Positions 1 to 29,241 of a DNA stretch of 64,000 nt are shown piece by piece. A program made the translations under genes and the position numbers. Below the pieces are notes generated by a model that worked only from the letters and a program-made list of their open reading frames with translations, had not been told where the DNA came from and searched no databases. Position 1 is the stretch's first letter, and each line of letters starts with the position of its first letter. The stretch lies in the NCBI GenBank assembly GCA_000165345.1, contig CM000433.1, positions 768,001-832,000 on the forward strand, in the 5' to 3' direction.

Positions 1-11
1 GTATTAAAGAC

Positions 12-1121
12 ATGGATTCCAAAGGAAATATACTTGTAACTGCTAGTACGGATGAGACAATGAGGATTTACAATTTGAAAACCAGATGTGATAGTGGAAT
101 GCTGACTAAACATCAGGGTAGCGTGACTTATGTATGTTTGTCTTGGAACTATAAATACTTAATTTCGTGTGGAGAGGATAAAGTTGTATGTATTTGGAGA
201 TGTTCAAATTGGGATCCAATTAAAAGTTTTGATGATATTCATAACTGTATTCCGATTTCAGCAGATTTTCATCCTTCATTGAAACTTGCTTTAACTTTAG
301 ATATTGAAGGAAATATATGCATGTTAAACCTCATAGAAGGAAATTTAGCAGCCAAATTCACTGTACCAGGAATGGAAAAAAATGGTCAAAATTTGAATAG
401 AAGGTATGGACTTTTTACTCTGATAAAATTTAATATTTCAGGAACTTATTATGCTGTGCTTTCTCAAAGAGAGCTTATTATTTCAAATATAACTGATAAG
501 GAAGATTGGTATTTAAGTTATTCTATTACTGATTTTGGAGTTGGGCCTTCACAAATAACTTCTTTCTGTTGGATTACAAATCAAATCTTTTTGGTTGGTT
601 TTTCCAATGGACTAATTAGAATTCTTCAAGTAACTAAACAATGTCTAATAAATTTGGAAATTACCTTCACAGTTTCAAAAACAACTTCTGATGAAATTAA
701 GAATCCACATCTTGGAAACAGAATTAAAGGAATTTGTATTATTGGTTATAACCATCTCAAGGATGAAAATCTTGGTAATTCTAATATATGTGGAAGATTA
801 GTAACATGCGATTCTTCCGGTATTTTTGTTCTTTTTAACTTTAAATTGAAATTTAACAAAGAAATTGGTAATAGTTTATGTGAACTTGAAATTATGGATA
901 TACTTGATTCTGATAATAGAATCACTTGCATGACAATTGAAGACAAAAACCCAATAGATCCTTTGTCTTTATTTTTGCCTTCAACTAGCCAGGAAAACTC
1001 AGAATCCATAGTTGATAAAGGTTGCTTGTCTAGCACTCCAACCAAAGGTAACAAAAAACTGAAGGTCATTAAGAAATCTAAGCTGGATAATTCAAAAAAG
1101 AAGGATAATTTAAAACAGTAG
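12..1121 (+). CDS. WD40-repeat protein; the 5' end may lie upstream of the window
   Basis: 369-aa ORF with repeated WD-like blades (e.g. LISCGEDKVVCIW, TASTDETMRIYNL). The frame stays open back to nt 3, so the ATG at 12 may be internal. Confidence 0.55.
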   Translation: MDSKGNILVTASTDETMRIYNLKTRCDSGMLTKHQGSVTYVCLSWNYKYLISCGEDKVVCIWRCSNWDPIKSFDDIHNCIPISADFHPSLKLALTLDIEGNICMLNLIEGNLAAKFTVPGMEKNGQNLNRRYGLFTLIKFNISGTYYAVLSQRELIISNITDKEDWYLSYSITDFGVGPSQITSFCWITNQIFLVGFSNGLIRILQVTKQCLINLEITFTVSKTTSDEIKNPHLGNRIKGICIIGYNHLKDENLGNSNICGRLVTCDSSGIFVLFNFKLKFNKEIGNSLCELEIMDILDSDNRITCMTIEDKNPIDPLSLFLPSTSQENSESIVDKGCLSSTPTKGNKKLKVIKKSKLDNSKKKDNLKQ

Positions 1122-1295
1122 ATAATAATCTGGTAGTTTATTTACTTGAATTAATATCTGATCTATATTATAGTATAACTTGAACTTTAACTGTTCTTTT
1201 AACTTGACAATATTTCAAAATATGAACTTTTTTTTTATTTATTTTGGTTGATTCCAGAATTCTGGATGTCTTTTAGAAACTGATAAACTTGAATT

Positions 1296-1625
1296 TTAGT
1301 CTTGTTTACTATTTTTGGATTTTTCTTTTTGTACATTATATTGATGTAATCCTAGAGTCAATGCAGCAAGAAAGAAGAATGAAGAAGAATTGAAGGTAAT
1401 GTATTTCTCTGGAACTAAAGTTTTCCAGAGTTTTTCTTGCATTCTAGCCTGATCTGCTATTTTGTCACCATTAATAATTTCAGATTTCTTATTTAAATTA
1501 AACTTGGAATTTTTGAAATATTTGAATATATGAAGAAATTGCTTGGAGTTACTTGTAAGAAATGACCTTCTTACAAGTAAACTACTTAGATTAAGTAAAT
1601 TTCCATGGGATGTGGGAAATATCAT
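1296..1625 (-). CDS. small hypothetical protein, possibly a tail-anchored membrane protein
   Basis: 109-aa ORF with one C-terminal hydrophobic stretch (SSSFFFLAALTLGL) followed by a basic tail. A GGGCGCCAAA box sits about 53 nt upstream of its ATG. Confidence 0.3.
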   Translation of the reverse strand: MIFPTSHGNLLNLSSLLVRRSFLTSNSKQFLHIFKYFKNSKFNLNKKSEIINGDKIADQARMQEKLWKTLVPEKYITFNSSSFFFLAALTLGLHQYNVQKEKSKNSKQD

Positions 1626-1677
1626 CCTAAATTTAATAAATTAAAGTTTTTATTATACATGGCATTATTTTTAGACT

Positions 1678-1687
1678 GGGCGCCAAA
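1678..1687. promoter_or_regulatory. E2F-like GGCGCC box (GGGCGCCAAA)
   Basis: GC-rich near-palindrome in AT-rich DNA, 53 nt upstream of the minus-strand ORF that starts at 1625. Confidence 0.4.
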
Positions 1688-2061
1688 CTTGGAATTAATT
1701 TAAATGCATTTTAAAAGTAAATCAAGGTAAATGAATAAGAATTAAATAGAGAAAAAATTTTAAGAGAGTATATTGAGGGTTAAATCAAAGAAGATTAAAA
1801 AAATAATACATTAGGAATTAAATTGGAGATGTGTATCAAAGTATTTAACTTAGAATATATGAGATTTGTTAAATTACAATAGCTAGCTTTTGTTAAAATA
1901 GCCTTAAAAAAAGTCTTAATAGAATCATTTTGGGAATATTTAGGCTTTAATACATAGTTTGCATGCATTACATGCAAACTATGTATGAATATATTTATAT
2001 ATATATATATTTAAATCATTAAATTTTTAGAAGCTACCAGCTTATTGTTTTTTTTTACCTT

Positions 2062-2694
2062 TTAATTTTGTTCTTGTTTCATTAATTTAGTAATAATTTT
2101 GGGGGTCTTAAATAGTCGAAAACCATTAGAAATTGGCATTAAAGGGTAAATATCTTCAAAGAAGTAGTAGGTGTGTCCTACAATAATTCCCATTAAGTTA
2201 TCCCAAGGTCTCCATCCAATGACTAAACCCATACCCATTAATACCCATGGCAAGTAAGGAGCTCTTACGGTGAATATGAAAACCGACATTCTAGCAGATG
2301 GATTTCTTCTTCCCCAAATATAAGTCATTACGTTGATAACTGCTCCACTAAAAAGATATCCAGCTCCAAAGAAATATGAAAGGAGAAGAAGCATCCAAGA
2401 ACATGTTATTAGCATCCAAAGAAAGTCAGCTGGTCTACTGTGGAAAACTACATCTTCCAAAGACGCACAGTAATATAGAAGTACATAGGCATTCCAAAAG
2501 AAGTGAAGGCTGAATGTTCCAAAAAAGAAAAAACAAGTTGCAAGTCTCCATATTTGGTATTCGTTGATCACAAGTAGCCAATTTAAATACAAATTAAAGG
2601 GTGAAATAATATCTAGAGTGCATAACACCATCAATAAGGTTGAGATAGCGAAGTAGACCTTCGTTACTGGCGGAATATTATTCACTACCAACAT
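2062..2694 (-). CDS. DER1: Derlin (Der1-like ERAD membrane protein)
   Basis: 210 aa with four predicted TM helices and Der1-like signatures (YQIWRLATCFFFFG, GNxxDL-type loop). Confidence 0.8.
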   Translation of the reverse strand: MLVVNNIPPVTKVYFAISTLLMVLCTLDIISPFNLYLNWLLVINEYQIWRLATCFFFFGTFSLHFFWNAYVLLYYCASLEDVVFHSRPADFLWMLITCSWMLLLLSYFFGAGYLFSGAVINVMTYIWGRRNPSARMSVFIFTVRAPYLPWVLMGMGLVIGWRPWDNLMGIIVGHTYYFFEDIYPLMPISNGFRLFKTPKIITKLMKQEQN

Positions 2695-2767
2695 TTTTTT
2701 CTTCTTCTTGTTATTTTACAAGCCAACTTTTCTATATTCTCACATTAATACTTATTGGATTTATGCG

Positions 2768-2792
2768 TTGGGCGCCACTACTTGGCGCTCAA
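2768..2792. promoter_or_regulatory. tandem E2F-like boxes (TTGGGCGCCAC / TTGGCGCTCAA)
   Basis: Two adjacent GGCGCC-type boxes about 75-100 nt upstream of the derlin ATG on the minus strand. Confidence 0.45.
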
Positions 2793-3152
2793 CGCTAACA
2801 GTTGCATGCACAGAAATTATTCTGAAGAAGAGAAAGGCTAAGAAGAAAGAAGGTGAGGGGTGCATAGGTTTTGGTAGGAGGTGGAGAATGGGAGATAGGC
2901 GAGCTGGGGAATATGGGGAACAAGCAGTGCACCAATGGGTTGGTGATAAGCAAGAAGCATTGTATCAATCTCTTTTTTAAGTAAAGTAATGTTATTATAA
3001 TCTAGATAATTAAGAATTAGGTTAATTTAGAATTCAAAGAGTTTTGAGTTTAGATGATTACATAAAGATTGTAGACTTAGAAAAAAAATTTTAATAAGCT
3101 ATTCTTATATGTTAAAAGGGATAAAATAAATTGATTGAACTATGCTAAAGAA

Positions 3153-4358
3153 TTATCTGGCACGAGGAGCAAATATTGGAACAATAGCATCAACTTGGTC
3201 TTTTCTATTCATAAGGATCATTTCGGCAATCCAAGTAAGATTTCTAATTTCTTGTTCCTTAAGCCTGGCCCAGGCATAAAATACACCATAATTCATCTGC
3301 TGATCAAAAACAAGCTCACACATGGAGACAGTTTCAGCATATAATAAATCTTCTAAACTCTTAAATTGTCTATCAGCAAGATTCTTGTGACTTGAAGATT
3401 TCTTCTTATCAGTAGATTCATCCTTATCATCAGCAAGTCCAAAATCATTGGCAGTGTCATTAACATAGAATGCTTTGCATTGGTCATAGAGAGCACTGTA
3501 TTTTGAATATGGCTCCAAAGCAGCTCTTACACGAGTATCATTCCAGGCCTTTCTAATTTGTTCTGTGCCTTCTGGATATAAGTAACCAAAGCTTGGATAT
3601 AATGTAGAAGCACTCGAGAAATTAAAATTGAGTGAGTTTAAGGTAATTGCAAGAAGTCTAAAGTCCGCCTCACATTTTAAGACATGGCTCATAACTTCAG
3701 CAGATGTAGGATTCAAAGTTTGACAGAATCTATAGAAATCCTCAAGCCAAGATTTCTTAAGAGAACTTCTGAGAATCTCTAAATCCATTTCCTTAACAAT
3801 TGAGGTAACATCCTCATTTTCACCACTAAAGGATGTCAAAAATTCATCAAAGTATGGTCCAATTGGAGTCTCAATGAGAATTGACTTGTAAAGCTCATCA
3901 AAAGATGAAGACAAATCTAAAGCAACAAAAGCTCTTATTTCTGGGAAATATCCCAATGGGTCTAAACGAGCAAGAAGCTCTTCTGCTGGCTTCTTATTCA
4001 AAGCACCTTGGATCAAATTTACCACATTATCAATCATCTTCTCATAAGTAATGTAATTTAAAAACTTTCCCAATGGCTCATAAGCCTGAGATTGTAACAT
4101 CCTAAATTCATGAGCAAATTTTTCTCTACACTTTTGAGTTATCACATTCACTGACAGAGGAAGTGGCTCATCTTGCATAAATGTACCATAGTCTGTCTCT
4201 TCTAGTGCTGTTCTCATGTCTTCCAAAGTTTCAGCTTGGCCAATTAGGTGGTATTCATCCATTGTTATAAATCCTGATCTATACCCTCGAACCATTGCCT
4301 CCAAATACCCATCCTTTAAGTTAAATGTCAAAAGTTCCATCTTGAATTTAGTACTCAA
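3153..4358 (-). CDS. VMA6: V-type H+-ATPase V0 subunit d (AC39)
   Basis: 401 aa, collinear with remembered subunit d (e.g. GYLEAMVRGYRSG, HAYEPLGKFLNYITY, YPEG, VFYAWARLKEQEIRNLTWIAE). Confidence 0.85.
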   Translation of the reverse strand: MSTKFKMELLTFNLKDGYLEAMVRGYRSGFITMDEYHLIGQAETLEDMRTALEETDYGTFMQDEPLPLSVNVITQKCREKFAHEFRMLQSQAYEPLGKFLNYITYEKMIDNVVNLIQGALNKKPAEELLARLDPLGYFPEIRAFVALDLSSSFDELYKSILIETPIGPYFDEFLTSFSGENEDVTSIVKEMDLEILRSSLKKSWLEDFYRFCQTLNPTSAEVMSHVLKCEADFRLLAITLNSLNFNFSSASTLYPSFGYLYPEGTEQIRKAWNDTRVRAALEPYSKYSALYDQCKAFYVNDTANDFGLADDKDESTDKKKSSSHKNLADRQFKSLEDLLYAETVSMCELVFDQQMNYGVFYAWARLKEQEIRNLTWIAEMILMNRKDQVDAIVPIFAPRAR

Positions 4359-4462
4359 TAATAGAACTCCTTTTTCACGCCTTTTTTCTTCTTATTTATT
4401 TTTAATTCCCTCTTGTTTTTCTTAACATAATAGCCTTTTCCGCATTAATTTAGCGGCCACAT

Positions 4463-4497
4463 TGGCGCCATCTATATTTTGGCGGGAATTTCCGGTA
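4463..4497. promoter_or_regulatory. E2F-like boxes: TTGGCGCCAT followed by TTTTGGCGGGAATTTCCGGTA
   Basis: Classical TTTGGCGGGAA E2F consensus fused to a CCGGTA partner motif, about 105-140 nt upstream of the V-ATPase d ATG. Sits in the divergent intergenic region shared with cyclophilin. Confidence 0.5.
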
Positions 4498-5130
4498 TGG
4501 CATTTTTTATATTATCAAAAATGCAAAATCAATATGGGAATAAGGAGGTAAAACGATTTTAAAAGATTTTTTTTCCTGTTTACATTAAAATAAGCCATAA
4601 GTTGAATTATATTATATATATCATATTTTTCTGATTGATTTTATTAGTAAAAGTTTTCATTCGTTTTTTTACGTCCCGTTCTTATTATTATTTTTTTTGG
4701 ACTAGTTTCAAATTGTGCAACTTTAACTATAATAATACATGCAATTCTCTTGATTGAGGATTTTTTTTAAAAATAAATATAAGTCCATACATTAATCTAA
4801 ATAATAAAGAAATGAAAAATAACAAGGAAATTAACATATATGGCGATTATAATACAGAAAAAAACAGGAAATGTTGGAAAAGTACGTAAGAATGGATAAT
4901 ATATTTTAAAACTTAAATATGAAAGTTACTTTATTTAGTTAATTCGTTAAATGTTATTATTACAGTAGGTCTAATAATCATCCTCATCAACCAATAAATA
5001 TATTTCGTTTATGGTATTTTGCATCAATTTTTTTGTATTAAAAATCATATATCATATAAAGTAAAGATCTTTGTTATTTTGTCTATTTGCTCAATAATTA
5101 TATTCTCATAATAAAAAAAACCGGGAAAAT

Positions 5131-5142
5131 CTCGGCGCCATA
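5131..5142. promoter_or_regulatory. E2F-like box CTCGGCGCCATA
   Basis: About 117 nt upstream of the cyclophilin ATG. Confidence 0.4.
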
Positions 5143-5258
5143 TATTAATACAGTCATGGCAATTAATATATTATTAATTACCAAAAATAAAGGTTGGGAG
5201 TGACTAGGATATTTGGAAATTATGCAAATGCTTGAGTAAATCCTTATATATTTAGTTA

Positions 5259-5765
5259 TTGATTAAATTAATGGAGTCAGGATTGAAAGCACAAGGTGAG
5301 GTATCACCTCGTTCAGATGCAAGCCCAAATACTTTAATAAAGTTACCTACAAAGAAAAATACCCATGTATTTTTTGATATTTCTATTGGAGGAACTCCAA
5401 CAGGAAGGGTGGTATTTGAGTTATTTACAGAAATTGCTCCTTTGACGTCTGAGAATTTTAGAGCCCTATGCACTGGTGAGAAGGGTAGAAGCCAAAATGG
5501 AGTGGATCTGCATTATAAGGGATGTAAATTTCACAGAATTATCCCAGAATTTATGTGTCAAGGCGGAGATATATCTTCAGGTAATGGTACAGGAGGAGAG
5601 TCAATTTATGGACCTACTTTTGATGATGAGAATTTTGTATTAAAGCATAATTCTGCTGGATTATTATCTATGGCTAATTCTGGTCCAAATACAAATTCTT
5701 CCCAATTCTTTATTACAACCATTCCATGCCCTTGGTTAGATGGCAGACATGTTGTTTTTGGCAAG
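5259..5765 (+). CDS. cyclophilin-type peptidyl-prolyl isomerase, exon 1
   Basis: Cyclophilin core ([44 protein letters not shown]). The ORF reads into a GTAAGT donor at 5766. There is an N-terminal extension of about 35 aa, and the true start could be the Met at 5271. Confidence 0.8.
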
Positions 5766-6009
5766 GTAAGTTAAATTATCCTTATTAATATAACTTTGAA
5801 CCCAGACGTGTTCCAGATCTTTATATTTTTATTTTTTAAAAATGAATCTAATTAAAGATTTGGGTCTAAGATGGGTAATACTAAGCTCCAGTATTTTTGT
5901 CTGGTTTTAGTTTATACAATGTTAAACTAAGATCCTATAATACTGGTATAATCAAGTTTTACATAAAACTTATATTTTACCAGCTTTTGTTAATTATTTC
6001 GTATTTCAG

Positions 6010-11413: not shown

Positions 11414-13255
11414 ATGATAAAACTACTTATTTCTATTTTCTTAGTCACTCCAGGGCTGGTAGTTAAAGGGGAACAATTAATTAGGTGCGACTCAAGCCCA
11501 ATGAACCTTTGTGGTTCAGATTTAGTGATTTACAAATCTGAATGTGATTTTTTGGCTTCAAAGGCTAGGTTAAGCGACTTGACTATTCTTGATTTAACTG
11601 ATTGTGTTAATGGTAATTTTAGTGAGTTAAATGTTACAGAGAGTAGTTCAAACTTAGATAATAGGTCATTAAGAGGGAGCAGCATATCAAAGAAAGATTC
11701 AGATAAAACTTCTGAAAATGTAACTTTATCACTGAAAAATGATACAGAAATGAATTTACCTGATTTAATGGATGATAATAACGAAAATATAGTTAACAAT
11801 TATACATTTGTTAATGGTTCTACTTCAGATGGAAAACATCTACAAGACATATCACTGACAGATTCTATATACAATAGTGGAGATAATATATTAAATGCAT
11901 TTTACATGGGCAAACATAGTCCAATTTTTCAAAATATTAACAAGTATAATGTGAAAATGATTAATGTTATCGTAGAGAATTTTGATATTTCTACATTTAT
12001 TTTATCAAATGGTAAATATAATCTTTCAAGATTTTCAATGCTAGTCTTAGAGTCTGTTATTAAGATATTGAAAAACCAAAGGTCGAAGATAGATAATTAT
12101 TTGTCTCGATTAAAAAGTACAAAGTTAGAAAGCACGGATAGTGATAATGCAACATATCCTTATAAAGTTGTGGATAGAAGAAACGATTCAAGTATAATTG
12201 GCCAGGAAGAATACGATGGTTTGAACGTGACATTCAAGTTTTCCAACTCAAGCAATGCAAATAGTTTCTTAGATTCACAAATATTAACAGATTTAGCACT
12301 TAAATATTCAAGCAAGGTTAATGTTAGTAGTATTGATAATAACCATAAAAAAGCTATTAGTAATAGATTACTGGTTGCTTCAGAAAATGATTATGCTCCT
12401 ATTAAAGAAATTGACTCCAATTTAACCGATAGCCACTTTGTTGTTGATAATTGCGAAGTAAATATTCCACCTTATCAAGGAGCTCAGTTGGTTCCCAATT
12501 TCCATTGTATCTTCCCCCAAAACTCTACAGGTAATAATTTTGAAGTTGCTTGCAATAATATTCTTAGTTTGGCCCAAATAGCCATTATGAACACATTTGG
12601 AAATAATTCAAATTTAAATCTGATTCCATACAAAGTGTTAAATCCAATCATGAACGTAACTAGTTTATCAGAAGGTAATATCAGAATTTTGTCGAGCAAT
12701 CAATCTTGGGAGGGTGAAAGTCAGGAGAAATTTGTTCTGGATTTCTTTGATTTATTATTATCCCCATTGAATTTTACAAATGAGATAATGGACCTCGAAA
12801 TTGGTGAGATCTTTGTGAACTTTGATTTTAGTCTCTTATCTAATGGTGACTTTATTGACTCTTCGGTCTCAAATGTCAATGATACCACCAATTTGGAAGA
12901 AATAGATGAGATTTTTAAGTTAGACTCTATTTTAAAGGATTTAAATTTAATTCTGAAATCGAATAACACAGATAACTCTACGTTATCAGGTTCATTGAGA
13001 ATCACAAGTGAAACATTACCAAAAATGGACTCAAATTATACAACTGATGGCATATCTAGAGATTTCCCTCCTGCATTTGATAGGGTAAGAGGACCAGATT
13101 GCGTAGTTAAATGTGATGACAATATTGACTTACATTGTGCAAACAACGGAATAGCATACAAGAACCTTTGTGAATTCAGAAATGCTCAATGCGATGATCA
13201 AGGCTTAATTTTCGTTGGCTTTGGAAAATGTTTGCCTCTGGTTATTAAAACTTAA
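11414..13255 (+). CDS. secreted N-glycosylated protein with Kazal-like domains at both ends
   Basis: Signal peptide MIKLLISIFLVTPGLVVKG. N-terminal CDSSPMNLCGSDLVIYKSEC and C-terminal C-x3-C-x7-C-x6-Y-x3-C-x6-C-x12-C (CANNGIAYKNLCEFRNAQC) fit a Kazal/follistatin pattern. There are more than 25 NxS/T sequons. No TM helix. Confidence 0.55.
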   Translation: MIKLLISIFLVTPGLVVKGEQLIRCDSSPMNLCGSDLVIYKSECDFLASKARLSDLTILDLTDCVNGNFSELNVTESSSNLDNRSLRGSSISKKDSDKTSENVTLSLKNDTEMNLPDLMDDNNENIVNNYTFVNGSTSDGKHLQDISLTDSIYNSGDNILNAFYMGKHSPIFQNINKYNVKMINVIVENFDISTFILSNGKYNLSRFSMLVLESVIKILKNQRSKIDNYLSRLKSTKLESTDSDNATYPYKVVDRRNDSSIIGQEEYDGLNVTFKFSNSSNANSFLDSQILTDLALKYSSKVNVSSIDNNHKKAISNRLLVASENDYAPIKEIDSNLTDSHFVVDNCEVNIPPYQGAQLVPNFHCIFPQNSTGNNFEVACNNILSLAQIAIMNTFGNNSNLNLIPYKVLNPIMNVTSLSEGNIRILSSNQSWEGESQEKFVLDFFDLLLSPLNFTNEIMDLEIGEIFVNFDFSLLSNGDFIDSSVSNVNDTTNLEEIDEIFKLDSILKDLNLILKSNNTDNSTLSGSLRITSETLPKMDSNYTTDGISRDFPPAFDRVRGPDCVVKCDDNIDLHCANNGIAYKNLCEFRNAQCDDQGLIFVGFGKCLPLVIKT

Positions 13256-13690: not shown

Positions 13691-16600
13691 ATGAGTTTAA
13701 ATCATACGGAAGTTTGTATTTTTTCACAAAAAGCTAATATAGTTTATATGAAGTTGCTAAAAGTAGCCCTGAAACCATCAATATTTATGTTAGATTTAGA
13801 TAAAGAAGATGATAGCGATGATTTTAAGGATTTCTTTTTGGAACTTTACTTCAAAAGACTCAATATTAACAAGAAAGGAGATTGTGAAGTAAACTTAACC
13901 CGGGATGTAAAAAATTCAATGATTCCTTCTTCGAAAATTTTTTATTTGATTTATAAAAAAAGCGATCCACATGATTTTTTTGCATGCAGCCATGCAGATA
14001 AAATAATTTCATTCAATACCGGCGTGTCCACATTACTAAGAAATGTGTGCAAATACATGCATTTGGTATTTGTTTTGGATTTAGGGTCATTACTATGGTT
14101 CTCAGAATTATTTGATGATATAGAACAGTTGGGGGTGTATTTAGATGAATTTTTGTTAAGTTTAGAAAATATATTAAATGGTGTTTCAAGATTATCTGAG
14201 TATTTAAAGTATCTACAAGAAGATGTAGAAGTGAGATTTTCCGTTTTTTTGTTTGGGTTGAATCAAGAGGAATCTTGTTTTAAACTGATATTTTATGAAA
14301 TTCCACTAATTTCTTGGATTTCTGAAACAGAACTTTTTATTGAAAACTTGCAAAAAGAGATTCAGCAAATATTAAAGACTCATTTGGAATTCAAGGAAGG
14401 TATACCAAACTTTCCAAGGAACTTGTGGAGTATTGAGATTCTTGCATTATTGAATTCGTTTTCATCTTCTTTCGTTCATTCACTAATTGTTATTACAACG
14501 GGAGTAATATCTTCCAGACTTTTTTCTAAAGAAAATTCTTCATCATTAGTTTGCAAGAATAGTTACTTATTACATCACTGTTATTCAAATGATATTCAAG
14601 TTCATTTTTTGGTTATTAACAAGTTTAATATAGACCTGGAAGAATCAGAAATTGGATTGAATCCTTCATTAGACACTTTGGAGTTTGTTGCAGCAACTTG
14701 TAATTCAACTTTAACAGTAACTGAGTTTGGAGTAAATGAACAAGATGCGAGGAAGATAGCTATTGATTTGTTACTCAGACCGGATATTTATAATATTCCT
14801 TCGGATATTGTATCAGAAGTTAAAAATGAATTTAATAATTTGACGGAGATTTATGGCTACAAAGTAAGTCAAAAATTATCTCTGATTGAGATTTTATTAA
14901 ATAAATTAAGAAACAGTTTTAATTTTGTTGGAGAAACAATAATTGAGGTTCCCTTAATTTTATATTCAAAATTTCACAAGCTGATTGAAATTATTTGCGT
15001 AATTGAGAATTATAAAGATATTCAAGATAATCATTGTTCAGGATTTTGGTACATCAAATTCTATATCAAAAATCTGGGGAATGTTATTTCTACTTCTGAT
15101 GAATTTTCTTTATTAAAAAAATTACTAGAGTCTAAAGAAGAGATTAAAAAGCCCAAGTCATTTAATAAACCTAATAGATTGACTTATTTTCTTTACTCTT
15201 TTATACTCAAAATCCGTCAATTGGATACTTGGATGGAGAATTTGGTTGAAAATTATTCAAAAACTAAAGACCCTCCAGCTTTTCCAAGTGGTTTGAATAG
15301 CTTATTTCTCCCAAGTATTATTCGGCATAAGATTGACTTAGTTTTGGAGAGCGATCAAAGTTTACTCAAGGAGGGAGTTTTTGATGGTTTTAAGGGTTCT
15401 TGGGAACTTTTACAAGATAAATTGGTAGAAATGGGATTTAAAGCTTTTATATTAGAAAATCAACAGTTTGAGTATGACTTTCCAATAATAGAAAAGGATA
15501 AAATCTTAATATATTATAATTTGTTTCCAAAGATGAATACTAGTGAAATCGAGTTCAAGTGTGAAGATCATGGAATCTTGAGAATTTTAAGATCCTGGGC
15601 AAAAACTGATTCTTTACTGGAAAATCTTAACTCAAATGGGTCTGAAAAAGCCAACAACTTTATGGCAATTTGGTTGGATGCCCAGAGAATCATTATTAAA
15701 ACACCTGATCATGAAAAAAGTAATAGTGAAGAAATAGAAAGCCAATCTTCATTAGTAATTTTTAATATCCTATATTATGGGTTTAGCCCAGAATATTGCC
15801 AGGAATATACAAAGTGGTTTAAAGAAAAAATTATTAAGTACGGAATTGATTCTGATGAGGCCGACTTAAGTCTTTTAAGATTTTCACTAGTAACAAATAA
15901 TTTCTATGAAAGCGTTATAAATGGAGAAAGATGTTTGGAAAAGTCATGGAGCTATGTGCTTTGGAGTGAAAAGGTAAATTATAGCTATCAAGAACAAGAA
16001 CCAATGGATTTGAATGGAAGAGTCATAATAAATATATCAAATTCTAGATATTTGGATGGGTGGATCTTGCTTAATAGAAGAAATGACAAATATCAATTAA
16101 GCTCAACCTGGTACAAAGTCCGTGATTTCCAAATCAGAAACAATTTCAAGTTAAAGGTAGTATTTATTTATGATCTTAAATTTCAATTTGGAAACAATAC
16201 AAATAGTAGTAGGCTAATATGCAGAATTTTAATGTCAAGTTCTATTGGAAAAACTGATATTATTAATGAAACCTATGGAGAATACTTTTCATTTAATAAA
16301 TTCGCAGAAAAAATTCATTTTCAAGACAATAAAATAATACAAACAATCTCATTAATAGATTATTTGTATACTTCAAGCCATTTAAGGAAGAATATTGTAT
16401 ACCTTAGAAATAATAATGATGAAGAGGTAAACGAAAAAAGTAAAGGAGAAAATAATTCTGAAATAAAGTCTGAAAGCTTTCATCAAAATCTATGCAAGAG
16501 TAAATTTGGAGCAGTAAACTCTAATTATTACAATATCATTTTTAGTGGCCTTACAAATTCGAAAGAATTTAATAAATACAAGAGAATAATCCAAAGTAAA

Positions 16601-19600
16601 TCATTTTATGGAAATGATAATAAAATTTCATTATCAATTCGAGAAATTTCAAATCTTTTTCTCACATTTAATAATAATGAAATTAAGTTAGATTCAGATG
16701 ATAAAGATACATTCAAGCTAGTTTTACCATTTAATTTAGGAAACGGCAACTATAAAGATGCTGAACAGGAATTGGATAAAGAATTTATCAATAAATTTAA
16801 ACCTTTCTGTTTTATAGAGATACCTCTAATTAACGCAGGAAATTTATTTACTTCTCAGCTTAATTCCAATAGTAGAAAGAAGAATTCTGACATTGAAGCA
16901 AGAAGAAAGTATTTGGAGGGCGCATCAGAAAGTTCATTTGAGAAGTTTCTTTATAAGATGTCAAAGATCACAGATAGATCCGTTAGAGTAGATGAAAATG
17001 AGTGGTATACAATATTGTTTATAGATGAAAGTGACTTAGATGGAAAGTTTGAGGACGAGGAAAGTTTGACAATTAATGAAGATTTAAAACCTATTCCTGG
17101 TGATAAAAAAGAAGAAATGAACAATGAAAATTCAATAAGAAAGTTATATACTAATCAGATCTATGATTATATGATAATTACTCATATTAGGCTTCACAGG
17201 TCTAGCTATAATGTACCAACAAGTTCAGTATTAGGAGTTTATCTATGCTCATATTATAATATTAGCTATGGAATAACTGGGAAAAAGAACAATATTGAAT
17301 TAGGAATTAACGAAAAAAATAAGCTTAATAAGGTAAGACAATTCGTGGAATTATATATTTTAAGAGTAAAAGAAATTTGGGATTCTATTAAATTTAATAT
17401 GATTTCCCAATACTATCTATTAGGGATACCAATTTGTTCTAAAGATATTGCAAGGATACAAAATGAAAATGAATTCAATGAAGAGAAGACTCAACCACCT
17501 TCTTCCATTGGCGGATTAAATAAGAGTTTAATAGAAGATCCCATATCAGTTCGTGGAATTGACCTTGATTTAGATCCAGAATTTGACTTCATTAAAGAAG
17601 ATAATACACATCAAGAGAATTTTCAAAGCTTATTATATGGATTAAGCTCTAATCAGGAACATCTTTCAGAAAAGGGAACATATTCTGATCCAGATACTTG
17701 CTCAGATATAGCTTTTGATGCAAATGAATATAATGAAGTTAGAAGAGAAGTTTGTAAGTATCTTAAATGCAATATATTCAGATTTAAGCTTAGCCTTTCA
17801 AGCTTTAAAATAGTTTTATCTCGAAAATTTACAAAAAATGTGGAATTGGACAAAGGTTTGGATGAATTGGATGAATTAGCAAATTTTATTGGAGAAGAAC
17901 TTGAAAGTCGTATGAAAAATGCATTGAGAGTGAAATTGGTTCATTTTGATTGTCAAGATTTAAATTGTTTTTTAGTTTTCTGTGGAGTACTTGATTTGTG
18001 TAAAGGGAGTACTAAGAATATTTTAGTAACTGTTTCATTAATGAAAAACGAGCAAAATTTAGGAATTTCTTACCTTGAACTAGCCAAATTTTGGACAAGA
18101 TTTAAGAATACAAGTTTTAACCCTACCTGGTTTCACTGCTTGGTTTGGAAGAGTTTAACAGAAAGAGACAATTTAGAACTTAAAGTGACTGTATTCACAT
18201 CCATTGATAAGAAGTACATTAGAGTCAACAGAATAAATACTGAGCTTTGGTCAATTATTAAGTTAGAAAAAGAAGTCTTCGTTTCAAAATTAAGAAGTGT
18301 AATTTCATCTTGGATGACTGATATGACCATGGAGCTTTCTTTCATACATGGAAATGAAATTTCTGGGGATATTAATGATGAATCATATAGAATGAGTCTT
18401 TTTGCTTGCTTTGGAAGAGATTTATTATTGGAATGTTTACAAGGAGTTAAAGAGAAAATTTGGAATGATGGGGATGAGATATTTTCAGGAGAGTCATTTG
18501 AGAAAGGCGAACTCGTATCTTCTGGATCACTCATTTTTAGAAGAGACATTCAGCTTCCTTTGATCAAACCTACTACTAAATTTGAAAATTATATTGCAGT
18601 AATTAATTTACTTTCATCTCAAGCTGATTATATTCCAATCAAAAGAAAACCACAATTAGTCTTAATATGGCATGGATCTAAGTTTCCAACTGAGAGTTTA
18701 TCAATCAGAAATCCAAGCTTAAAATGCAAGCTCAGAAGAGGCCTTATTAACAGGTTAATTGAGCATACTAGAGTACTTGCTGAGATCTCTAACCCTGATG
18801 AATTGATAAGTAATGAATTGGTACTTAAACTTGCTTTAAAGATTTATTTCCCATCTTCAATTATTACTGGAATGAGTATTGCTTCACAAAATAAATTTAG
18901 ATGCAGATTATGTGATTTTTATATAGATCTAAATGGCTTACGTGAATCTATTAATTTCCTTTTTTCAGCAATGCAAAGCAGATTCATTAGTATTTGGAAG
19001 GAAGCAACATGTGATTTCTTATTACAAAATGTCACTATTTCAAAGATGGTTAGTTATCTGATGGTACCTAAATTTGTTTCATCTGATTATTCAAGCTTGA
19101 GATTAGAAATTGATAAAAGAAAACCAGAAATCTCAATTTTAGATTCAAATGATCAAGAAGAAATTTTTGGACAAATTTCAATTACGTCAGAATGGCTATA
19201 CGAAGTTCCTTTTGAAATTTCTCCAGCAAGATTTAGAAGAATGAAAAAAAATAGTCTTAATAATTTGCTTAAAAGAAAGTTGGATCCTGATTATTACGAA
19301 AATCCTGGAGAAGTAATTCTATGGGATGGTAGAATTGTTAAAGTACCTAATTATATATTTTGGTTAAAAAAACATGAGGAAGTGTTTATTGAAATTCCAT
19401 CTGAACTTTATGATGCTCCATTAATTGATATTTTGTTTGGAGGAGGAAACTTGGATATTTCAAGTATTGATAAATATAGCAAAGAACTATCTTCAATTGA
19501 AAAAAATTTATTCGGAAATTCTGATTTTGGAAAGGAGCTTAATAAAGCTTCTGAGCTTCGATTTTCGAAAGAAATAGAATTTATTTCATTAATATATCCA

Positions 19601-22600
19601 AAAGGATGGTTATTATACTCTGAAGATGCAACTACTTCAACCAATACACTTGGAACTGGATCAATATTTCTAATTAAACCAGATTATCTTTTTATTGATA
19701 TTAAAAACAAGGATTTGAAATTACAAAGAAAAAGAAGAAAAGATTTTATTAATCAAAATGAGTCATACCAAAGTTATTCTGTAGAACTTTCTCTTTCAAA
19801 TTTAAATGTTACAAAACCTAAATCCAAAATTGGGATTTCTCTTTCTTTCTTTGGAAAAAGAAAGCCTTCAAAGAGTACAAAATTATACTTTTATAGAGAA
19901 TTAAAGTTTACATTGCAGAGATTAATTTCTAATTGGAACAATAACCTCAACACTATAGTTCTTTCTAAAACAGTTCGTGAGAGACAAGTTGGAGAAATAT
20001 ATTGGAACTCAAAGAATGAATTAAACAGTGATAGTAATCAAAAGGTGGAGATGCCTTGTCATCTAACTTTAATCTTGAAATTAAGCAAAGTATACCATAA
20101 TTTTGTTGTTGCTTCAGTTTGGAATATGGTTAAACATAGTAATATTATTTTAAAAAGTGGGGATTTGTTTGCAATACTGGCAAGTATATTAACATATTAC
20201 AATATCAAATATAAAGAAATTGATAGAGGAATTCGTATTTTTACTAAAAGTATTGATATTGATTCAAAATCTGAGGAATTTGAATATCAAATTGATATAT
20301 CAGTATTTTCAGGAATTAATGGTAGGATCTTAGATATTTCGGATCCATGGGCTGCAGGAAATAAGCTTGGTCAAGATCCCTATTTAAATTTAGAAAAATA
20401 TATTAATGACTGTCTACTTCCAGTTTTTGAAGATGAAATACAACAGTCTACAAATCCATATTGGGACTTTAATACAGTCTTTGAATTTGTATTCTTTAAT
20501 AAAAATAATCAGTTTGATAATATTAATAATTGTAATATAAATGAAACCATTTCTTGGAATCTAATAAGAGATTCAAATGGTAAATTAATACAGATACAAA
20601 GAAACTTACCAATACACATCATTCCAGAAAATAACTCAAATGAAACAAAAAAGCAAAAATCTCCTCACTCATTTATCCAAACAAGTTCTCGGTACGAATC
20701 TGATAATATGGAATTACCAATATATTTAATGCCATGTATTTATTTGGGAGCAGATGTATTCTATAAAGGAAAACTAATCTATTTGGATGAGAGACTAGAA
20801 ACTAATGAAATGACTAAGCATAAAGCAAATGGTGTAAGTTTGTTTATTAATTCACTTTTGAATTTAATGTTTATGGAACTATTGATTAAGCTAAAGCTTG
20901 CAACTAACGATAATTGGGTTCTAAAAGATAACTTACAGTTTTCCAAGAAAGAATCGAATATTCAAACAAATGATAATTTAGATGATTGTTCATTAATTGT
21001 TAGTAATAGTTATGCTGAAGCTCATGGAGTAACTATTAGAGATATACATAAATATAGAGATAATATCCAAAACTTTTTTCAGGCAATAATTAATAATAGA
21101 AATAATATTGAAAGATTCTTACCTTTAAAGCCAGCACCTAAACATAACACAATCTTAGAAATTTATCCAATACCAAGTTTAATTCTACAAGATATTAATG
21201 GAGAAAAAGATGAGACTCAAATTTATTTTCCTTCTTGGAGTGTAGCTGAATTTATTAAAACATTAAGAGATGAAATTATGCTCATTCAAAATAATAAAAC
21301 TAACTTATCAGAAAAAAGGAATATAAAGACTGTCATTTCTGGATATACTTGCATAATTCATGATAATAAAGAAATTGATATAGAAGAAAAGGTACTGAAA
21401 AAAGAAGATGGAATTTCATTATCTAATAATTCTTCAATTCATATCAAATTTCCTATTAGAGGAAGCCAATCATTTAAAAATGCTGATGTTGGAGAATGTG
21501 GATGGCATGTTTTGAAATATAAATCTCAAATAAAATACTTGAATTATTTATGTAATCAAACAGATTTGAACATTAACAATTGGGTGGATTCATTATATGT
21601 AATGAATAATATCTCTCCTAATATTAATAATTCGATTGGGAACAAAAATGATTTAGACTTTAACGAAATTTATGGTTCATTTTTTAATATTTCTGGTGGA
21701 AAAGAAAGACCATGTATAATAGTAAATATTCATTCAGGTAATGAAACTGAAATTGAATGTTTGATCATTCTTGAGCTTACTCCTAGTGGAATATTGATTG
21801 CATGTTGGAATGCTCCTGTTTTAATTATAAGCAGGCTTCAGAAAATGATTAAGGGATTTGTATTTGAAAGTTGTATCAAAATAATTTGGTCATTACAGTT
21901 ATCAATTTGGTACAAATATAATGTCATTTATAGAAAGCACATTTTTGTATTGGATTTGTCAAAATTTCATTTAGATTTTAAGCAAGATTCCAGTATTAAT
22001 AATAATGAATCATCAGGGTTTTCTATGATTAATAATAACTATTATCCGAGAATATGTGAGATTACCACAGATATTATTTCATATATTTGGAAGAATCAAT
22101 ATTTCAATACAAATTTGAAATGGAGTCATACTGAAGATTTGTATAAAAAGGAGCTTATGATTGAATGCAAAATTAATAGATTAAAGTTGGAGGATGTTGT
22201 AATTCCAAATATTATAATGGGAAAGATATTAGATTTGAAATTTGAAGACTTATTTGATAGAAATAATAATAAGGAATTTAATTGGTTCATTCCTTCTATC
22301 ATTAACAAAATAAGAATTTTAAATTCTGATAATTTAATGAAAAGGTGGAATAATTACTTCTTTAAATATAAATTATGGTTATTTGTTAATCAATTTTTGA
22401 TTGAATGTTTTGCAATTAAAAGTTTAAGACAAGAAATTTCTACAAAAATATTTTCAAAGAATATAATTCTTCAAGTTAGTAAAAGTAATATGATCTTTAA
22501 ATATCAACAGATTATTAATTTCTTAAAGAAGAGAGTTGAGACTTATAATATTGATTATTCAAAATATTATAAAACTTATAAAATTAATTGTCAAGAGAAA

Positions 22601-24820: not shown

Positions 24821-24855
24821 AAAATAAAGAAAATTAAGAGATAATAGTAAAATAA

Positions 24856-25181
24856 TTAATAAAAAGGATTAAAATTGAAATATTTATGGATAATTTCTTT
24901 AATACCTTCAAGATCAATTTGTTGTATTTGTTTAAGCTTATCATCAATACTGGTATAATGGTTATTGACTATTAAATCTCTACCAATTTCCTCAAATAAT
25001 GTTCCAGAATTTTCATATAATGAAGTTAATTGATATGAAAGAATTCTCTTAACTCTAATAATATCGTCTTCAGTAATTAATGAATGTAGGTTTTTAAATC
25101 GAGAGCTAATTAATTTGGCATTTTCCATAATAGCTTTGTGACTAAGATCACTATTGCTTTTAAGGTACCATCCAAATAAGC
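24856..25181 (-). CDS. MPP-beta-like peptidase, exon 2 (C-terminus)
   Basis: A 53-nt intron (25182-25234; GTAAGT…ATTATTAG) joins …YKDTG to GLFGWYLKSN…, matching the conserved M16 C-terminal YTDTGLWGLY block. The ORF track lists 24856-25128 as plus strand, but its translation is only present on the minus strand. Confidence 0.7.
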
Positions 25182-25234
25182 CTAATAATGAATTAAAAAA
25201 GAAAACTAAGAATAGGAATGAAGATATAACTTAC

Positions 25235-28707: not shown

Positions 28708-28924
28708 AAAAAAAATGGAATTAAAGGCAAAGAGACTATATTTTTAAGTGCTAGACCTTAGATTTTCCTAGGTGTCTATTTATTGATAAATTTTTTTTTC
28801 TAATTCAAATTAGAATTATGGTTTGAATCTATTAAAGATGCATGGTTGCATAATTGAGCCAATAGAGGGGTCCTCGCGAAAGCGTAGAAGTATAATGTCT
28901 ATAAAGAATGGAGGTATTGGATTT

Positions 28925-29235
28925 CAAGGAAGGCTGAATAAGCAAGAATTAACGAATAGAGAAATAGATGGTAGACAGGGACCAGATAAAGAAGTCTGAA
29001 AGGTTGAATTGAAAAGATATTAAGAAAAGGAGGAAAGTTAGAAAAAGGGGGGAATAATAGAAAGAGGAAGAGAGAGAAAGAGAGAGAGGGAAGAAGAAAG
29101 TAAGAGTGAGAAAAAAGATAAAAGGAGAGAGATAGTAATTTAAGGTCTGATAGAGGAGGTAGTAAAGTGGAGGAAGGAGGTTTATCAAAGGATGAAACTG
29201 AGACACTTATTGTTTGAAAATAAAGGAAGAAGCTT
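28925..29235. repeat. polypurine (GA-rich) tract
   Basis: About 300 nt that is almost entirely A/G on the plus strand (e.g. GAAAGAGGAAGAGAGAGAAAGAGAGAGAGGGAAGAAGAAAG), immediately upstream of the giant adhesin ATG at 29242. Confidence 0.6.
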
Positions 29236-29241
29236 GAATTA

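Follow-up and report, generated by a model that had tools for sequence, protein, structure and literature searches.

cgd5_3380 of Cryptosporidium parvum: a Kazal domain and a probable second Kazal-family module at the ends of a predicted secreted N-glycoprotein

The locus considered here raises the question of whether a parasite protein with Kazal-like cysteines near both termini serves to hold off the serine proteases of the host gut. There is a precedent in TgPI-1, a non-classical coccidian Kazal inhibitor that shields Toxoplasma from gut-derived serine proteases (PMC12147184), and such a role was proposed in the earlier note on the window, by which we mean the whole stretch of DNA analysed (64,000 nucleotides; positions 768,001 to 832,000 of contig CM000433.1, assembly GCA_000165345.1).

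The gene, its neighbours and its expression

The product of the open reading frame listed first in Table 1 is 100% identical to EAK88032.1 and QOY41861.1, and is located in C. parvum on CP044418.1. The gene is cgd5_3380 of Cryptosporidium parvum, an identifier that, like the product name, is taken from Tandel 2019 supplement 4. The locus is independently anchored by its neighbours cgd5_3400 (INS-23), cgd5_3410 (TPT, 495 aa) and cgd5_3420 (TRAP-C2, 3,869 aa). Neither the gene nor its Kazal annotation is a discovery, as public databases already contain both. In the main text of the searchable papers, neither cgd5_3380 nor cgd5_3390 nor the words ‘possible kazal domain’ were found and, amongst the six identifiers cgd5_3360-cgd5_3410, only cgd5_3400 and cgd5_3410 are mentioned there. 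The supplements to the O-glycoproteome (PMC5549699), TSP (PMC10034466) and AP2-F (PMC10233709) papers yielded nothing on cgd5_3380 either.

Table 1. Features of cgd5_3380; positions are those of the window and residues those of the predicted product.
Feature	Residues	Positions	Strand	Basis
Open reading frame	613 aa	11414..13255	+	Program-made list of open reading frames
Predicted signal peptide, MIKLLISIFLVTPGLVVKG	1-19	11414..11470	+	Hydrophobicity scan and orthologue alignment
Atypical Kazal-like domain (N-terminal)	20-64	11471..11605	+	Cysteine register, profile matches, hhalign
Lineage-specific central region	65-550	11606..13063	+	Sequon counts, composition, profile search
Most conserved central block (…NKYNVKMINVIVENFDISTFILSNGKYNLSRFSMLVLESVIKILKNQ…)	161-235	11894..12118	+	Orthologue alignment A1, composition
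Conserved pre-Kazal motif, FPPAFDRVRGPD	551-562	13064..13099	+	Orthologue alignments
Complete non-classical Kazal domain (C-terminal)	563-606	13100..13231	+	Pfam, profile, domain model, Foldseek
Putative reactive-site loop, C567-D-D-N-I-D-L-H-C575		13112..13138	+	Register rule and orthologue contact-residue table
Conserved short C-terminal tail, LPLVIKT and stop		13232..13255	+	Alignments and hydrophobicity scan

The gene lies, as had been claimed, 14 kb from the TPT gene and 16 kb from the gene for the giant TSP1/LNR protein. The former had been described as nucleotide-sugar-type, but cgd5_3410 is placed with the sugar-phosphate transporters (phosphate/PEP-type; PMC9713705). Little can be made of the suggestion that cgd5_3380 has secretory and surface genes around it; its neighbours also include an M16 peptidase and an uncharacterised protein of 3709 aa without a Pfam match. 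We have set aside any argument from the gene neighbourhood as uninformative in this eukaryote.

The mRNA of cgd5_3380 stands at 0-1.3 FPKM in 18 extracellular samples (oocyst and sporozoite) and at 22-215 FPKM in 12 of the 17 intracellular samples (Matos 2019 data). Values of log2CPM are 6.7 for asexual stages, 7.75 for females in vitro and 5.2 for females in vivo. The transcript is one of asexual and female intracellular stages, and not of oocysts or sporozoites.

Secretion and the central region

Residues 1-19 are the only 19-residue window of the protein with a Kyte-Doolittle score of at least 1.6, and the hydrophobic N-terminus is retained by all full-length orthologues. Public database annotations likewise list a signal peptide. 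Cleavage before E20 is probable, the site having been placed by the -3/-1 rule rather than by a dedicated predictor. In the Kyte-Doolittle scan the lone hydrophobic segment is the N-terminal one, with no transmembrane segment or GPI tail elsewhere, and the alignments and hydrophobicity scan show the conserved C-terminal tail to be neither a GPI-type hydrophobic tail nor a KDEL-type signal. Secretion, as assumed in the earlier note, is thus predicted from a single orthologue-conserved hydrophobic segment and from the database annotations, and the product can be described as a predicted secreted N-glycoprotein that has no membrane anchor.

All 23 N-x-S/T sequons fall in the central region, 14 of them as N-x-T. 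Composition-preserving shuffles of the sequence gave 11.7 +/- 2.9 sequons, with two of 2000 shuffles reaching 23, and the density of 3.8 per 100 aa is the highest amongst the 12 large open reading frames of the window that were compared. There are 22-29 sequons per orthologue (n=9), and 15 positions are common to at least six of the nine. The enrichment that had been pointed out is therefore real, at about twice the expectation, although the count is 23 and not above 25; similarly, the Kazal ends are separated by ~498 aa where ~450 aa had been given.

This part of the protein had also been called a mucin-like spacer, a description that does not fit. The mucin-like glycoproteins of Cryptosporidium include gp40/15, gp900 and CpMuc. 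The Ser/Thr/Pro-rich low-complexity tracts that bear dense O-glycosylation, by which a mucin-like glycoprotein would be recognized, are not seen here; the composition is 34% ILVFMWY and 2% Pro, and the hydrophobic blocks of the centre are conserved and non-repetitive. Judged from its sequons, the potential glycosylation of cgd5_3380 is N-linked and not mucin-type.

The central region comprises a variable polar linker (residues 65-160), the conserved hydrophobic blocks and two invariant cysteines (C347 and C365). The best conserved block, residues 161-235, has 52-100% identity across orthologues, compared with 24-91% for residues 65-160; it is 44% hydrophobic and is probably a folded core. A full-length AlphaFold2 model, built from a nine-sequence alignment, was rejected as a basis for the fold of the region because its mean pLDDT was 29. 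No Pfam or PDB match was obtained for the region, a profile search of 1.84 billion representatives gave no match outside Cryptosporidium, and no internal repeat was significant in a shuffle test. One candidate for internal duplication, ENFDISTFILSNG against VNFDFSLLSNG, was rejected (z = 2.5; 6 of 300 shuffles reach the score). The layout of the protein had been considered unusual: this holds for the middle, which is without matches outside the genus, but the gene and its Kazal annotation were already public. The syntenic orthologue of C. andersoni (355 aa) keeps the C-terminal Kazal domain and is denser still in sequons, at 6.2 per 100 aa; its middle is not alignable with that of the C. parvum protein.

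A Kazal domain and a probable second Kazal-family module at the ends

Cysteine codons cluster near the two termini: the N-terminal cluster has them at 11486, 11510, 11543 and 11603, the C-terminal one at 13100, 13112, 13136, 13169, 13190 and 13229. Both clusters lie where Kazal-like patterns had been noticed, but only the C-terminal set is complete, the N-terminal set having four cysteines. Searching with the Pfam models had been proposed as a check, and Kazal_2 (PF07648) does call the protein, with 25.9 bits for the whole sequence, in two stretches, against a gathering cutoff of 22.8. A regular expression modelled on PROSITE PS00282 has no match in the protein, which is expected and uninformative because the domain has the non-classical C4-x6-C5 spacing. 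This spacing had been noted as longer than canonical; it is in fact that of a known non-classical Kazal layout, C-3-C-7-C-10-C-6-C-12-C, which is common to the elastase inhibitor 1y1b and typical of coccidian Kazal inhibitors (PMC12147184). Profile searches of the PDB from either end return nearly exclusively Kazal or follistatin-type chains and supersede a single-sequence search in which the matches were marginal (the best, to 1y1b, at E 0.04). The two ends are also mutually homologous (hhalign probability 92%, E 7e-7; local alignment z = 5.7).

The six cysteines of the C-terminal domain (563, 567, 575, 586, 593 and 606) have the spacing 3-7-10-6-12, which is invariant in 11 of 12 orthologues, the exception being C. 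xiaoi with an 8-residue loop, and which is compatible with a predicted 1-5/2-4/3-6 set of disulfides. The best Kazal_2 stretch is residues 574-600. The orthologue profile (A4) matches agrin at 2.2e-20, follistatin at 5e-9 and 1y1b at 1.3e-6, and its matches at E < 1e-3 include more than 40 Kazal-type chains of the PDB. An AlphaFold2 model of the domain has a mean pLDDT of 74 (72-86 in the core) and contains the elements E24-26, H35-44 and E50-53 of the Kazal fold, in which a short beta-hairpin and an alpha-helix are followed by a C-terminal strand. When this model was compared with the PDB by Foldseek, the top 50 matches were all Kazal or follistatin-type, and the superposition on the ovomucoid OMTKY3 has an RMSD of ~1.0 Å over 42 columns (TM(target) 0.74, probability 1.00); the Foldseek E-values are only ~5e-3 because the domain is small. 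The contact scaffold is conserved, with P3 as C567 and P15' as N584, the Asn being present in 10 of the 11 orthologues compared and replaced by Ser in C. xiaoi. The C-terminal module is structurally complete, with three disulfides (predicted pairing), a canonical loop of seven residues and Asn at P15'. The prototype of non-classical Kazal proteins, 1y1b from Anemonia sulcata, has the spacing 3-7-10-6-13; it is a free single-domain inhibitor of 48 aa with a hydrophobic P1 (C-T-M-Q-Y), whereas the Kazal domain of cgd5_3380 is a module of a glycoprotein.

The N-terminal domain contains C25 (C2, P3), C33 (C3), C44 (C4) and C64 (C6), and its 7-10-19 spacing is invariant in 11 orthologues; the identity of the domain across orthologues is 69-100%. 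It lacks the six cysteines of three disulfides, having no counterpart of C1 or C5; its register with the C-terminal domain is exact, and places Q21 at C1 and A51 at C5. P1 is S27 and, in place of the P15' Asn, there is an invariant Ser (S42, in 10 of 10 orthologues with this domain). The match to Pfam Kazal_1 (PF00050) is partial (residues 29-48) and, at 19.3 bits, below the cutoff of 21. The orthologue profile (A3), however, gives E-values of 2.8e-10 with agrin and 4.7e-6 with ovomucoid, and its 44 PDB matches at E <= 1 are almost all Kazal or follistatin-type. Homology of this domain to the Kazal family is very likely on the basis of these comparisons. As read from its cysteine register, it is an atypical and previously undescribed two-disulfide Kazal variant, predicted to lack the C1-C5 disulfide. 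As such, it differs from the published class without C3-C6 (PMC1236909), work on which indicates that stable inhibition is possible from a two-disulfide Kazal domain (PMC1236909).

The origin of the modules is indicated by other proteins of the genus. Secreted multi-Kazal proteins of Cryptosporidium (C. felis KAF7456930 and C. andersoni OII76041) have the extended signature P-x-x-F-D-R-V-R-G-x-x-C…C…EFRNAQC-D/N…L-x-F…G-x-C in common with cgd5_3380. For the C. felis protein, which has 11 repeats, the profile E-value is 1e-117, and C. parvum cgd4_3550 has the same product name as cgd5_3380. The multi-Kazal paralogues are tandem arrays, with P1 as R, K or M and without a large central region, whereas cgd5_3380 has one complete copy with an acidic loop and one degenerate N-terminal copy. 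Its C-terminal end is a Kazal-family module derived from the genus's own non-classical Kazal inhibitor family, and its N-terminal end is very likely another.

The motif immediately ahead of the C-terminal domain is nearly invariant in the orthologues, and recurs as P(L)GPFDRVRGPDC ahead of the Kazal repeats of the paralogues P0012 and P0015. In the domain model, pLDDT is < 50 for the eight residues with which it begins (FPPAFDRV). LEKTI and other multi-domain Kazal precursors are cut into single domains, and the recurrence of the motif, together with the predicted absence of structure in these eight residues, would suit a precursor of that kind, with the glycosylated body as carrier and the C-terminal Kazal domain freed by cleavage in or near the FDRVRG motif. 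We regard this as highly improbable. A furin-type site has Arg at P4, which D-R-V-R↓G does not provide, and the near-invariance of the motif could equally mark a structural extension of the domain.

The best profile matches of both ends amongst solved structures are to follistatin/agrin/SPARC-type FS modules, which have the C4-x6-C5 helix spacing in common with cgd5_3380; ELQRAQC and ALLKARC of the matches can be set beside EFRNAQC here. FS modules are metazoan extracellular-matrix or growth-factor-binding modules that usually follow an EGF-like subdomain, which the modules of cgd5_3380 do not have. The Kazal modules of agrin and follistatin are binding modules and are not known as inhibitors. 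The two ends could be disulfide-stabilised modules for binding or oligomerisation, belonging to a structural glycoprotein of the vacuole matrix, the host-parasite interface or the surface coat of the parasite, with no protease involved. An N-terminal domain without the C1-C5 disulfide and the P15' Asn points in this direction, as does the conserved acidic D-D-x-x-D loop of the C-terminal domain, which would be expected of a fixed binding or cation-binding surface, and a structural or coat role is suggested by the body, which is large, conserved and rich in sequons. Nevertheless, the domain clearly comes from an inhibitor-type repeat family (FDRVRGPDC…EFRNAQCDD is common to it and to repeats with CTREY loops) and the C-terminal copy keeps the canonical loop length and the P15' Asn. 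A non-inhibitory role of this kind is somewhat unlikely.

The reactive-site loop and its likely partner

The register of the putative loop follows from the rule that the second cysteine is P3 and the conserved Asn is P15' (PMC1236909): P3 is C567, P2 is D568, P1 is D569, P1' is N570, P2' is I571 and P3' is D572. P1 is Asp or Glu in nine of the 11 orthologues compared, with Lys in C. felis and Ser in C. andersoni; P3' is Asp in 10 of the 11 and the scaffold is almost invariant. The P1 residue is not one that suits the S1 pocket of trypsin (K/R), chymotrypsin (L/M/F/Y) or elastase (A/V/L). The predicted loop is acidic and conserved, and neither basic, aromatic nor hypervariable; for this reason, none of the host enzymes trypsin, chymotrypsin and elastase is a likely partner.

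These features have to be weighed against the role suggested in the earlier note, in which a secreted Kazal inhibitor guards the parasite from the trypsin, chymotrypsin and elastase of the host (digestive or neutrophil), as TgPI-1 does for Toxoplasma. TgPI-1 and TgPI-2, and NcPI-S of Neospora (MEROPS I1), are like cgd5_3380 in being secreted, apicomplexan, non-classical Kazal proteins with a short C1-C2 spacing (PMC12147184). TgPI-1 has four tandem Kazal domains with short spacers and with reactive sites of the trypsin type and the elastase/chymotrypsin type, whereas cgd5_3380 has two modules ~500 aa apart on an N-glycosylatable lineage-specific spacer, one of them disulfide-poor, and an acidic P1. 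It can be said for such a role that the intact C-terminal scaffold has a loop of canonical length and Asn at P15', that P1 is Lys in C. felis and the loop more canonical (C-T-S-E-F) in C. andersoni, and that merozoites meet luminal enzymes after their release from intracellular stages. However, the acidic P1 of nine of the 11 orthologues would clash with Asp189 of trypsin and, in the P1-variant work of Laskowski, acidic residues reportedly rank with the weakest against chymotrypsin, elastase and subtilisin Carlsberg. The N-terminal module, for its part, has Ser at both P1 and P15'. The C-terminal loop is conserved where hypervariability might have been looked for, and oocysts and sporozoites, which cross the gut lumen, have almost none of the transcript. 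Moreover, the multi-Kazal paralogues of the same genus, with the trypsin-/chymotrypsin-type loops CTREY, CPKFY, CSKYY and CTMEF, are better candidates than cgd5_3380 for defence against gut proteases. The protective role is thus weakened from several sides, and we consider it improbable for this protein.

Acidic loops of this kind have been described elsewhere. EPI1 and EPI10 of Phytophthora infestans are, like cgd5_3380, secreted Kazal proteins of a pathogen with Asp at P1, a residue that is uncommon amongst other Kazal inhibitors, and they inhibit subtilases (PMC7382257). The EPI proteins are small, with two or three tandem domains, and their target is the plant subtilase P69B. They also include a functional two-disulfide domain (PMC1236909), EPI1a, which lacks C3-C6 whereas the N-terminal domain of cgd5_3380 lacks C1-C5. 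The likeness is one of analogy, not orthology; it is because of this analogy at P1 with the oomycete proteins that a subtilisin-type partner is favoured here.

A more specific possibility is that the C-terminal Kazal domain acts as endogenous regulator of a subtilisin-like protease of the parasite that serves egress or maturation; in the vacuole, it would hold proteolysis in check until merozoites or gametes are released. PfSUB1, an apicomplexan subtilase, cuts after Asp at LVSAD↓NIDI and favours acidic amino acids at prime-side positions (PMC2647770), and D↓NID of the cgd5_3380 loop is identical in its letters to that site. The PfSUB1 consensus has Gly or Ala at P2 and an aliphatic residue at P4 (PMC2647770), with which the loop does not agree (its P2 is D and, in C. 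parvum, its P4 is K); on account of this misfit, the idea of a SUB1-substrate-like loop is kept only as a low-probability lead. For CpSUB1, the sole subtilase of Cryptosporidium whose substrate has been reported, the site used in GP60 is said to be basic and of the furin type (PMC11411101). Regulation of a SUB-type protease by cgd5_3380 is, in our estimation, decidedly doubtful.

The explanation that we prefer, tentatively and with a probability of roughly 0.4, is that cgd5_3380 is an intracellular-stage secreted N-glycoprotein of the vacuole or host-parasite interface, whose C-terminal Kazal domain has a conserved binding partner, which may be a protease of the subtilisin type. The protein would enter the secretory pathway, gain N-glycans and be released to the parasitophorous vacuole or to the interface, where the C-terminal domain would dock, substrate-like and in the standard manner, on a conserved partner protease. 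By analogy with EPI1 and EPI10, this would more likely be a subtilisin-type or other Asp/Glu-accepting protease, possibly the parasite's own. The role would then be to regulate proteolysis in the vacuole instead of shielding the parasite from gut enzymes. The N-terminal module would probably be a non-inhibitory binding or stabilising cap, and the glycosylated body may give solubility, spacing and protease resistance.

What the analysis adds is a refinement of the existing annotation: one complete non-classical Kazal domain, one variant without C1-C5, an acidic conserved loop and an intracellular transcript, with a heavy load of N-sequons that is conserved even in the syntenic orthologue whose middle is not alignable. 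If cgd5_3380 is a coat or interface glycoprotein, it may be of relevance as an antigen. Should the regulation of a SUB-type protease prove to be true, the protein would be the first endogenous protein inhibitor of such an apicomplexan protease, and the N-terminal domain would define a new two-disulfide class of Kazal domains. More generally, a loop directed at a subtilisin-type protease would bear on the control of vacuolar proteolysis in Cryptosporidium and on the biology of egress.

Identity and locus of cgd5_3380

The Cryptosporidium parvum open reading frame cgd5_3380 lies in an AT-rich window (GC about 0.30) of long, intronless open reading frames. Its product has 100% identity to C. parvum Iowa II EAK88032.1, named ‘protein with signal peptide and possible kazal domain’, which is the same protein as QOY41861.1 / CPATCC_002466. 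The gene maps to about 1.017 Mb on CP044418.1 (record 1,086,393 bp), presumably chromosome 5, judging by the cgd5 prefix of the gene names. The gene id and product name were taken from supplement 4 of Tandel et al. 2019; cgd5_3380 is therefore an annotated gene whose Kazal annotation already existed, and what is added here is a refinement at the level of domains together with a testable hypothesis. Its identity and architecture can be accepted with high confidence, and the observation made in an earlier note is, as a whole, real, the numerical corrections being small.

Features at and around cgd5_3380, in window positions
Feature	Position	Strand	Length	Description
cgd5_3380	11414-13255	+	613 aa	Gene under study
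FPPAFDRVRG(P)D motif	13064-13099			Near-invariant; immediately precedes first cysteine of C-terminal Kazal domain
cgd5_3390	13691-24820	+	3709 aa	
cgd5_3400 / INS-23			375 aa	M16 peptidase; anchors locus
cgd5_3410	27220-28707	+	495 aa	TPT transporter; anchors locus
cgd5_3420 / TRAP-C2			3,869 aa	TSP1/LNR protein; anchors locus
Strong composition shift	22001-26000			GC 0.21-0.24 at cgd5_3390 3' end and intergenic region after it
Strong composition shift	28001-34000			TRAP-C2 5' part: GC 0.36-0.42, GC skew about +0.2 to +0.33

The label ‘nucleotide-sugar-type’, formerly given to the transporter cgd5_3410, does not hold, as a survey of glycosylation pathways places it in the sugar-phosphate (phosphate/PEP) class (PMC9713705). 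This gene is strongly upregulated in females (log2CPM about 2 in asexual stages versus about 7–8), and cgd5_3390 is also higher in females (6.6 versus 3.8 asexual; both Tandel 2019). The latter has no Pfam match, and tblastn shows it to be conserved also in C. andersoni (E 1e-114).

Kazal domains at the two ends

The cysteines of cgd5_3380 fall at residues 25, 33, 44 and 64, at 347, 365 and 380, and at 563, 567, 575, 586, 593 and 606; both terminal clusters lie within the nucleotide intervals where they had been placed from the sequence. Pfam bears out the assignment to the Kazal family, with Kazal_2 covering two stretches at 25.9 bits against a gathering threshold of 22.8, and Kazal_1 narrowly missing its own threshold on the N-terminal one. 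In the C-terminal domain the cysteines are spaced C-3-C-7-C-10-C-6-C-12-C, a pattern kept in 11 of 12 orthologues. The distance between C4 and C5, suspected of being too long, is the expected layout, because the pattern is that of the non-classical Anemonia elastase inhibitor 1y1b (3-7-10-6-13) and a short C1–C2 spacing is typical of coccidian Kazal inhibitors, according to work on Toxoplasma TgPI-1 (PMC12147184). When this domain is modelled alone with AF2 (pLDDT 74), the model fits the ovomucoid third domain with an RMSD of about 1.0 Å across 42 columns, and its top 50 Foldseek matches are all Kazal or follistatin-type folds. In profile comparisons with the PDB, the C-terminal domain matches agrin (2.2e-20), follistatin (5e-9), ovomucoid and 1y1b (1.3e-6), and the N-terminal domain matches agrin (2.8e-10) and ovomucoid (4.7e-6). 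The Kazal folds of agrin and follistatin, which are also the best PDB matches for the Kazal ends, are binding modules not known to act as inhibitors, and the main rival to a protease-directed role is that the Kazal folds of cgd5_3380 serve as non-inhibitory binding modules of the same kind.

The N-terminal domain aligns with the C-terminal one at an hhalign probability of 92%, and its spacing, C-7-C-10-C-19-C, reproduces exactly the C2-C3-C4-(C5)-C6 register of the latter (6+1+12 = 19). The C1 and C5 positions are occupied by Q21 and A51, so that the C1–C5 disulfide is lost as a pair. Published two-disulfide Kazal domains, as in LEKTI and EPI1a, lack C3–C6 instead (PMC1236909), and the N-terminal domain is therefore a different atypical variant. 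Cysteine losses also occur in multi-Kazal paralogues, in the repeats at residues 83, 198, 271, 428 and 804 of C. felis KAF7456930 and at 224, 302 and 381 of C. andersoni OII76041. In the five C. felis repeats and one from C. andersoni, C2 is replaced by F or Y together with C4 by S or P, and the C2–C4 disulfide is thus lost; the change of C4 to S mostly turns the P15' Asn of these repeats into an N-x-S sequon (SNISEF, DNTSHF, SNLSEF). The C. andersoni repeats at 224 and 381 keep C2 with S at C4, leaving an odd number of cysteines. The altered repeats, like the N-terminal domain of cgd5_3380, differ from the published class lacking C3–C6.

The FPPAFDRVRG(P)D motif recurs as P(L)GPFDRVRGPDC ahead of Kazal repeats in the same two multi-Kazal proteins. 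It lies outside the Pfam Kazal models, no order is predicted for its first eight residues, and it may serve as a site of processing or extend the domain in a way particular to the genus.

Secretion, sequons and the central region

Residues 1–19 are the only segment with a Kyte–Doolittle score of at least 1.6, and the same scan gave no transmembrane helix or GPI-like tail. The protein carries 23 N-x-S/T sequons, 14 being N-x-T, all within residues 68–541; composition leads one to expect 11.7 +/- 2.9, and 23 was reached in 2 of 2000 shuffles. The count of more than 25 given in the earlier note was thus too high, although the heavy loading, about twice expectation, stands; so does the description of a protein predicted to be secreted, N-glycosylatable and Kazal-like at both ends. 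All nine close orthologues have 22–29 sequons, 15 positions being common to at least six of the nine, and the density of 3.8 per 100 residues is the highest among 12 large open reading frames of the window (otherwise 0.3–1.9).

The central region (residues 65–545; 35% S/T/N/Q) had been called a mucin-like spacer, which is refuted by its 34% hydrophobic residues, 2% proline and conserved blocks. Its conservation is patchy: residues 65–160 form a variable polar linker (24–91% identity among orthologues), residues 161–235 are 52–100% identical and 44% hydrophobic, and beyond residue 235 come the blocks LNVTFKF, NFHCIFPxNST, VLDFFDLLLSPLN and EIFVNFD, with two invariant cysteines. No significant internal repeats and no Pfam or PDB family match were found for this region. 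When 1.84 billion representative proteins were searched with a profile, matches beyond the Kazal ends came only from Cryptosporidium. The full-length AF2 model has a pLDDT of 29.

Full-length orthologues occur in C. tyzzeri, C. meleagridis, chipmunk genotype I, C. ubiquitum, C. canis, C. felis and C. xiaoi. The gene of C. andersoni, at a syntenic position (neighbours of ~1000 aa, E 7e-79, and ~3900 aa, E 1e-114, with flanking ADK and cyclophilin genes), encodes only 355 residues, with a degenerate, two-cysteine N-terminal Kazal remnant, a middle that cannot be aligned with the C. parvum protein, 22 sequons (6.2 per 100 residues) and a well conserved C-terminal Kazal domain (49% identity over the last 61 residues). 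Selection thus keeps the predicted signal peptide, a dense load of sequons and, at the C-terminus, the Kazal domain with its FPxxFDRVRG prefix. The tandem repeats of the secreted multi-Kazal proteins KAF7456930 and OII76041 also carry this prefix, along with the helix signature EFRNAQC. The syntenic C. andersoni locus (LRBS01000026.1), compared with positions 1–6000 of the window, carries at 802–4086 a 1094-residue Lon protease gene between V-ATPase AC39 and cyclophilin genes; tblastn found no Lon in the 64-kb C. parvum window, a contrast that could be tied to differences in mitochondrion/mitosome content between the two species.

Reactive loop, expression and possible partners

With P3 set at Cys2 and P15' at the conserved Asn (PMC1236909), the C-terminal loop reads V-V-K-C-D-D|N-I-D from P6 to P3', with N584 at P15'. 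Among 11 orthologues compared, P1 is D or E in nine (K in C. felis, S in C. andersoni) and P3' is D in ten; outside these loop positions the domain is nearly invariant. In the N-terminal loop, most species have Ser at P1, and the P15' Asn is replaced by a Ser that is invariant. The multi-Kazal paralogues, in contrast to the acidic P1 of cgd5_3380, have classic loops (CTREY/F, CPKFY, CSKYY, CTMEF). The transcript belongs to intracellular stages, with an FPKM of 0–1.3 in 18 extracellular samples and 22–215 in 12 of 17 intracellular ones (log2 extracellular/intracellular -7.5; Matos 2019), and sorted asexual and female stages have comparable levels (log2CPM 6.7, 7.75 and 5.2; Tandel 2019). Protection against gut proteases, as previously proposed for this gene, is accordingly poorly supported: the acidic P1, the missing P15' Asn of the N-terminal domain, the classic loops of the paralogues and the intracellular transcript argue against a protein that shields ingested stages from trypsin, chymotrypsin or elastase of the pancreas.

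Precedent for acidic-P1 Kazal domains comes from Phytophthora EPI1 and EPI10, which have Asp at P1, a residue seldom found there in other Kazal inhibitors, and which inhibit subtilases (PMC7382257). The C-terminal domain of cgd5_3380 may similarly partner a subtilase-type or acid-specific protease, although that choice of partner is, on our analysis, rather doubtful. PfSUB1, an apicomplexan subtilase, processes itself at LVSAD|NIDI and favours acidic prime-side residues (PMC2647770). This site and the C. parvum loop have D|NID in common; however, the loop has neither the Gly or Ala at P2 nor the aliphatic P4 that PfSUB1 strictly demands, and CpSUB1 reportedly uses a furin-type basic site (PMC11411101), for which reasons the subtilase idea is a reasoned hypothesis and not a result. 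The best combined explanation, with a probability of about 0.4, is that of a secreted N-glycoprotein of intracellular stages whose C-terminal Kazal domain would dock a partner protease, possibly of the subtilisin type.

Other annotated Kazal genes of C. parvum are distinct in expression (Tandel 2019 and Matos 2019 supplements): cgd8_4830 is essentially female-specific (log2CPM 1.5 versus 11.4), and the tables also hold cgd4_3550, a secreted multi-Kazal protein, and cgd4_750. A further Kazal gene, cgd8_3550, is mentioned in PMC4637869. The Kazal family of C. parvum looks to be sub-functionalised by stage.
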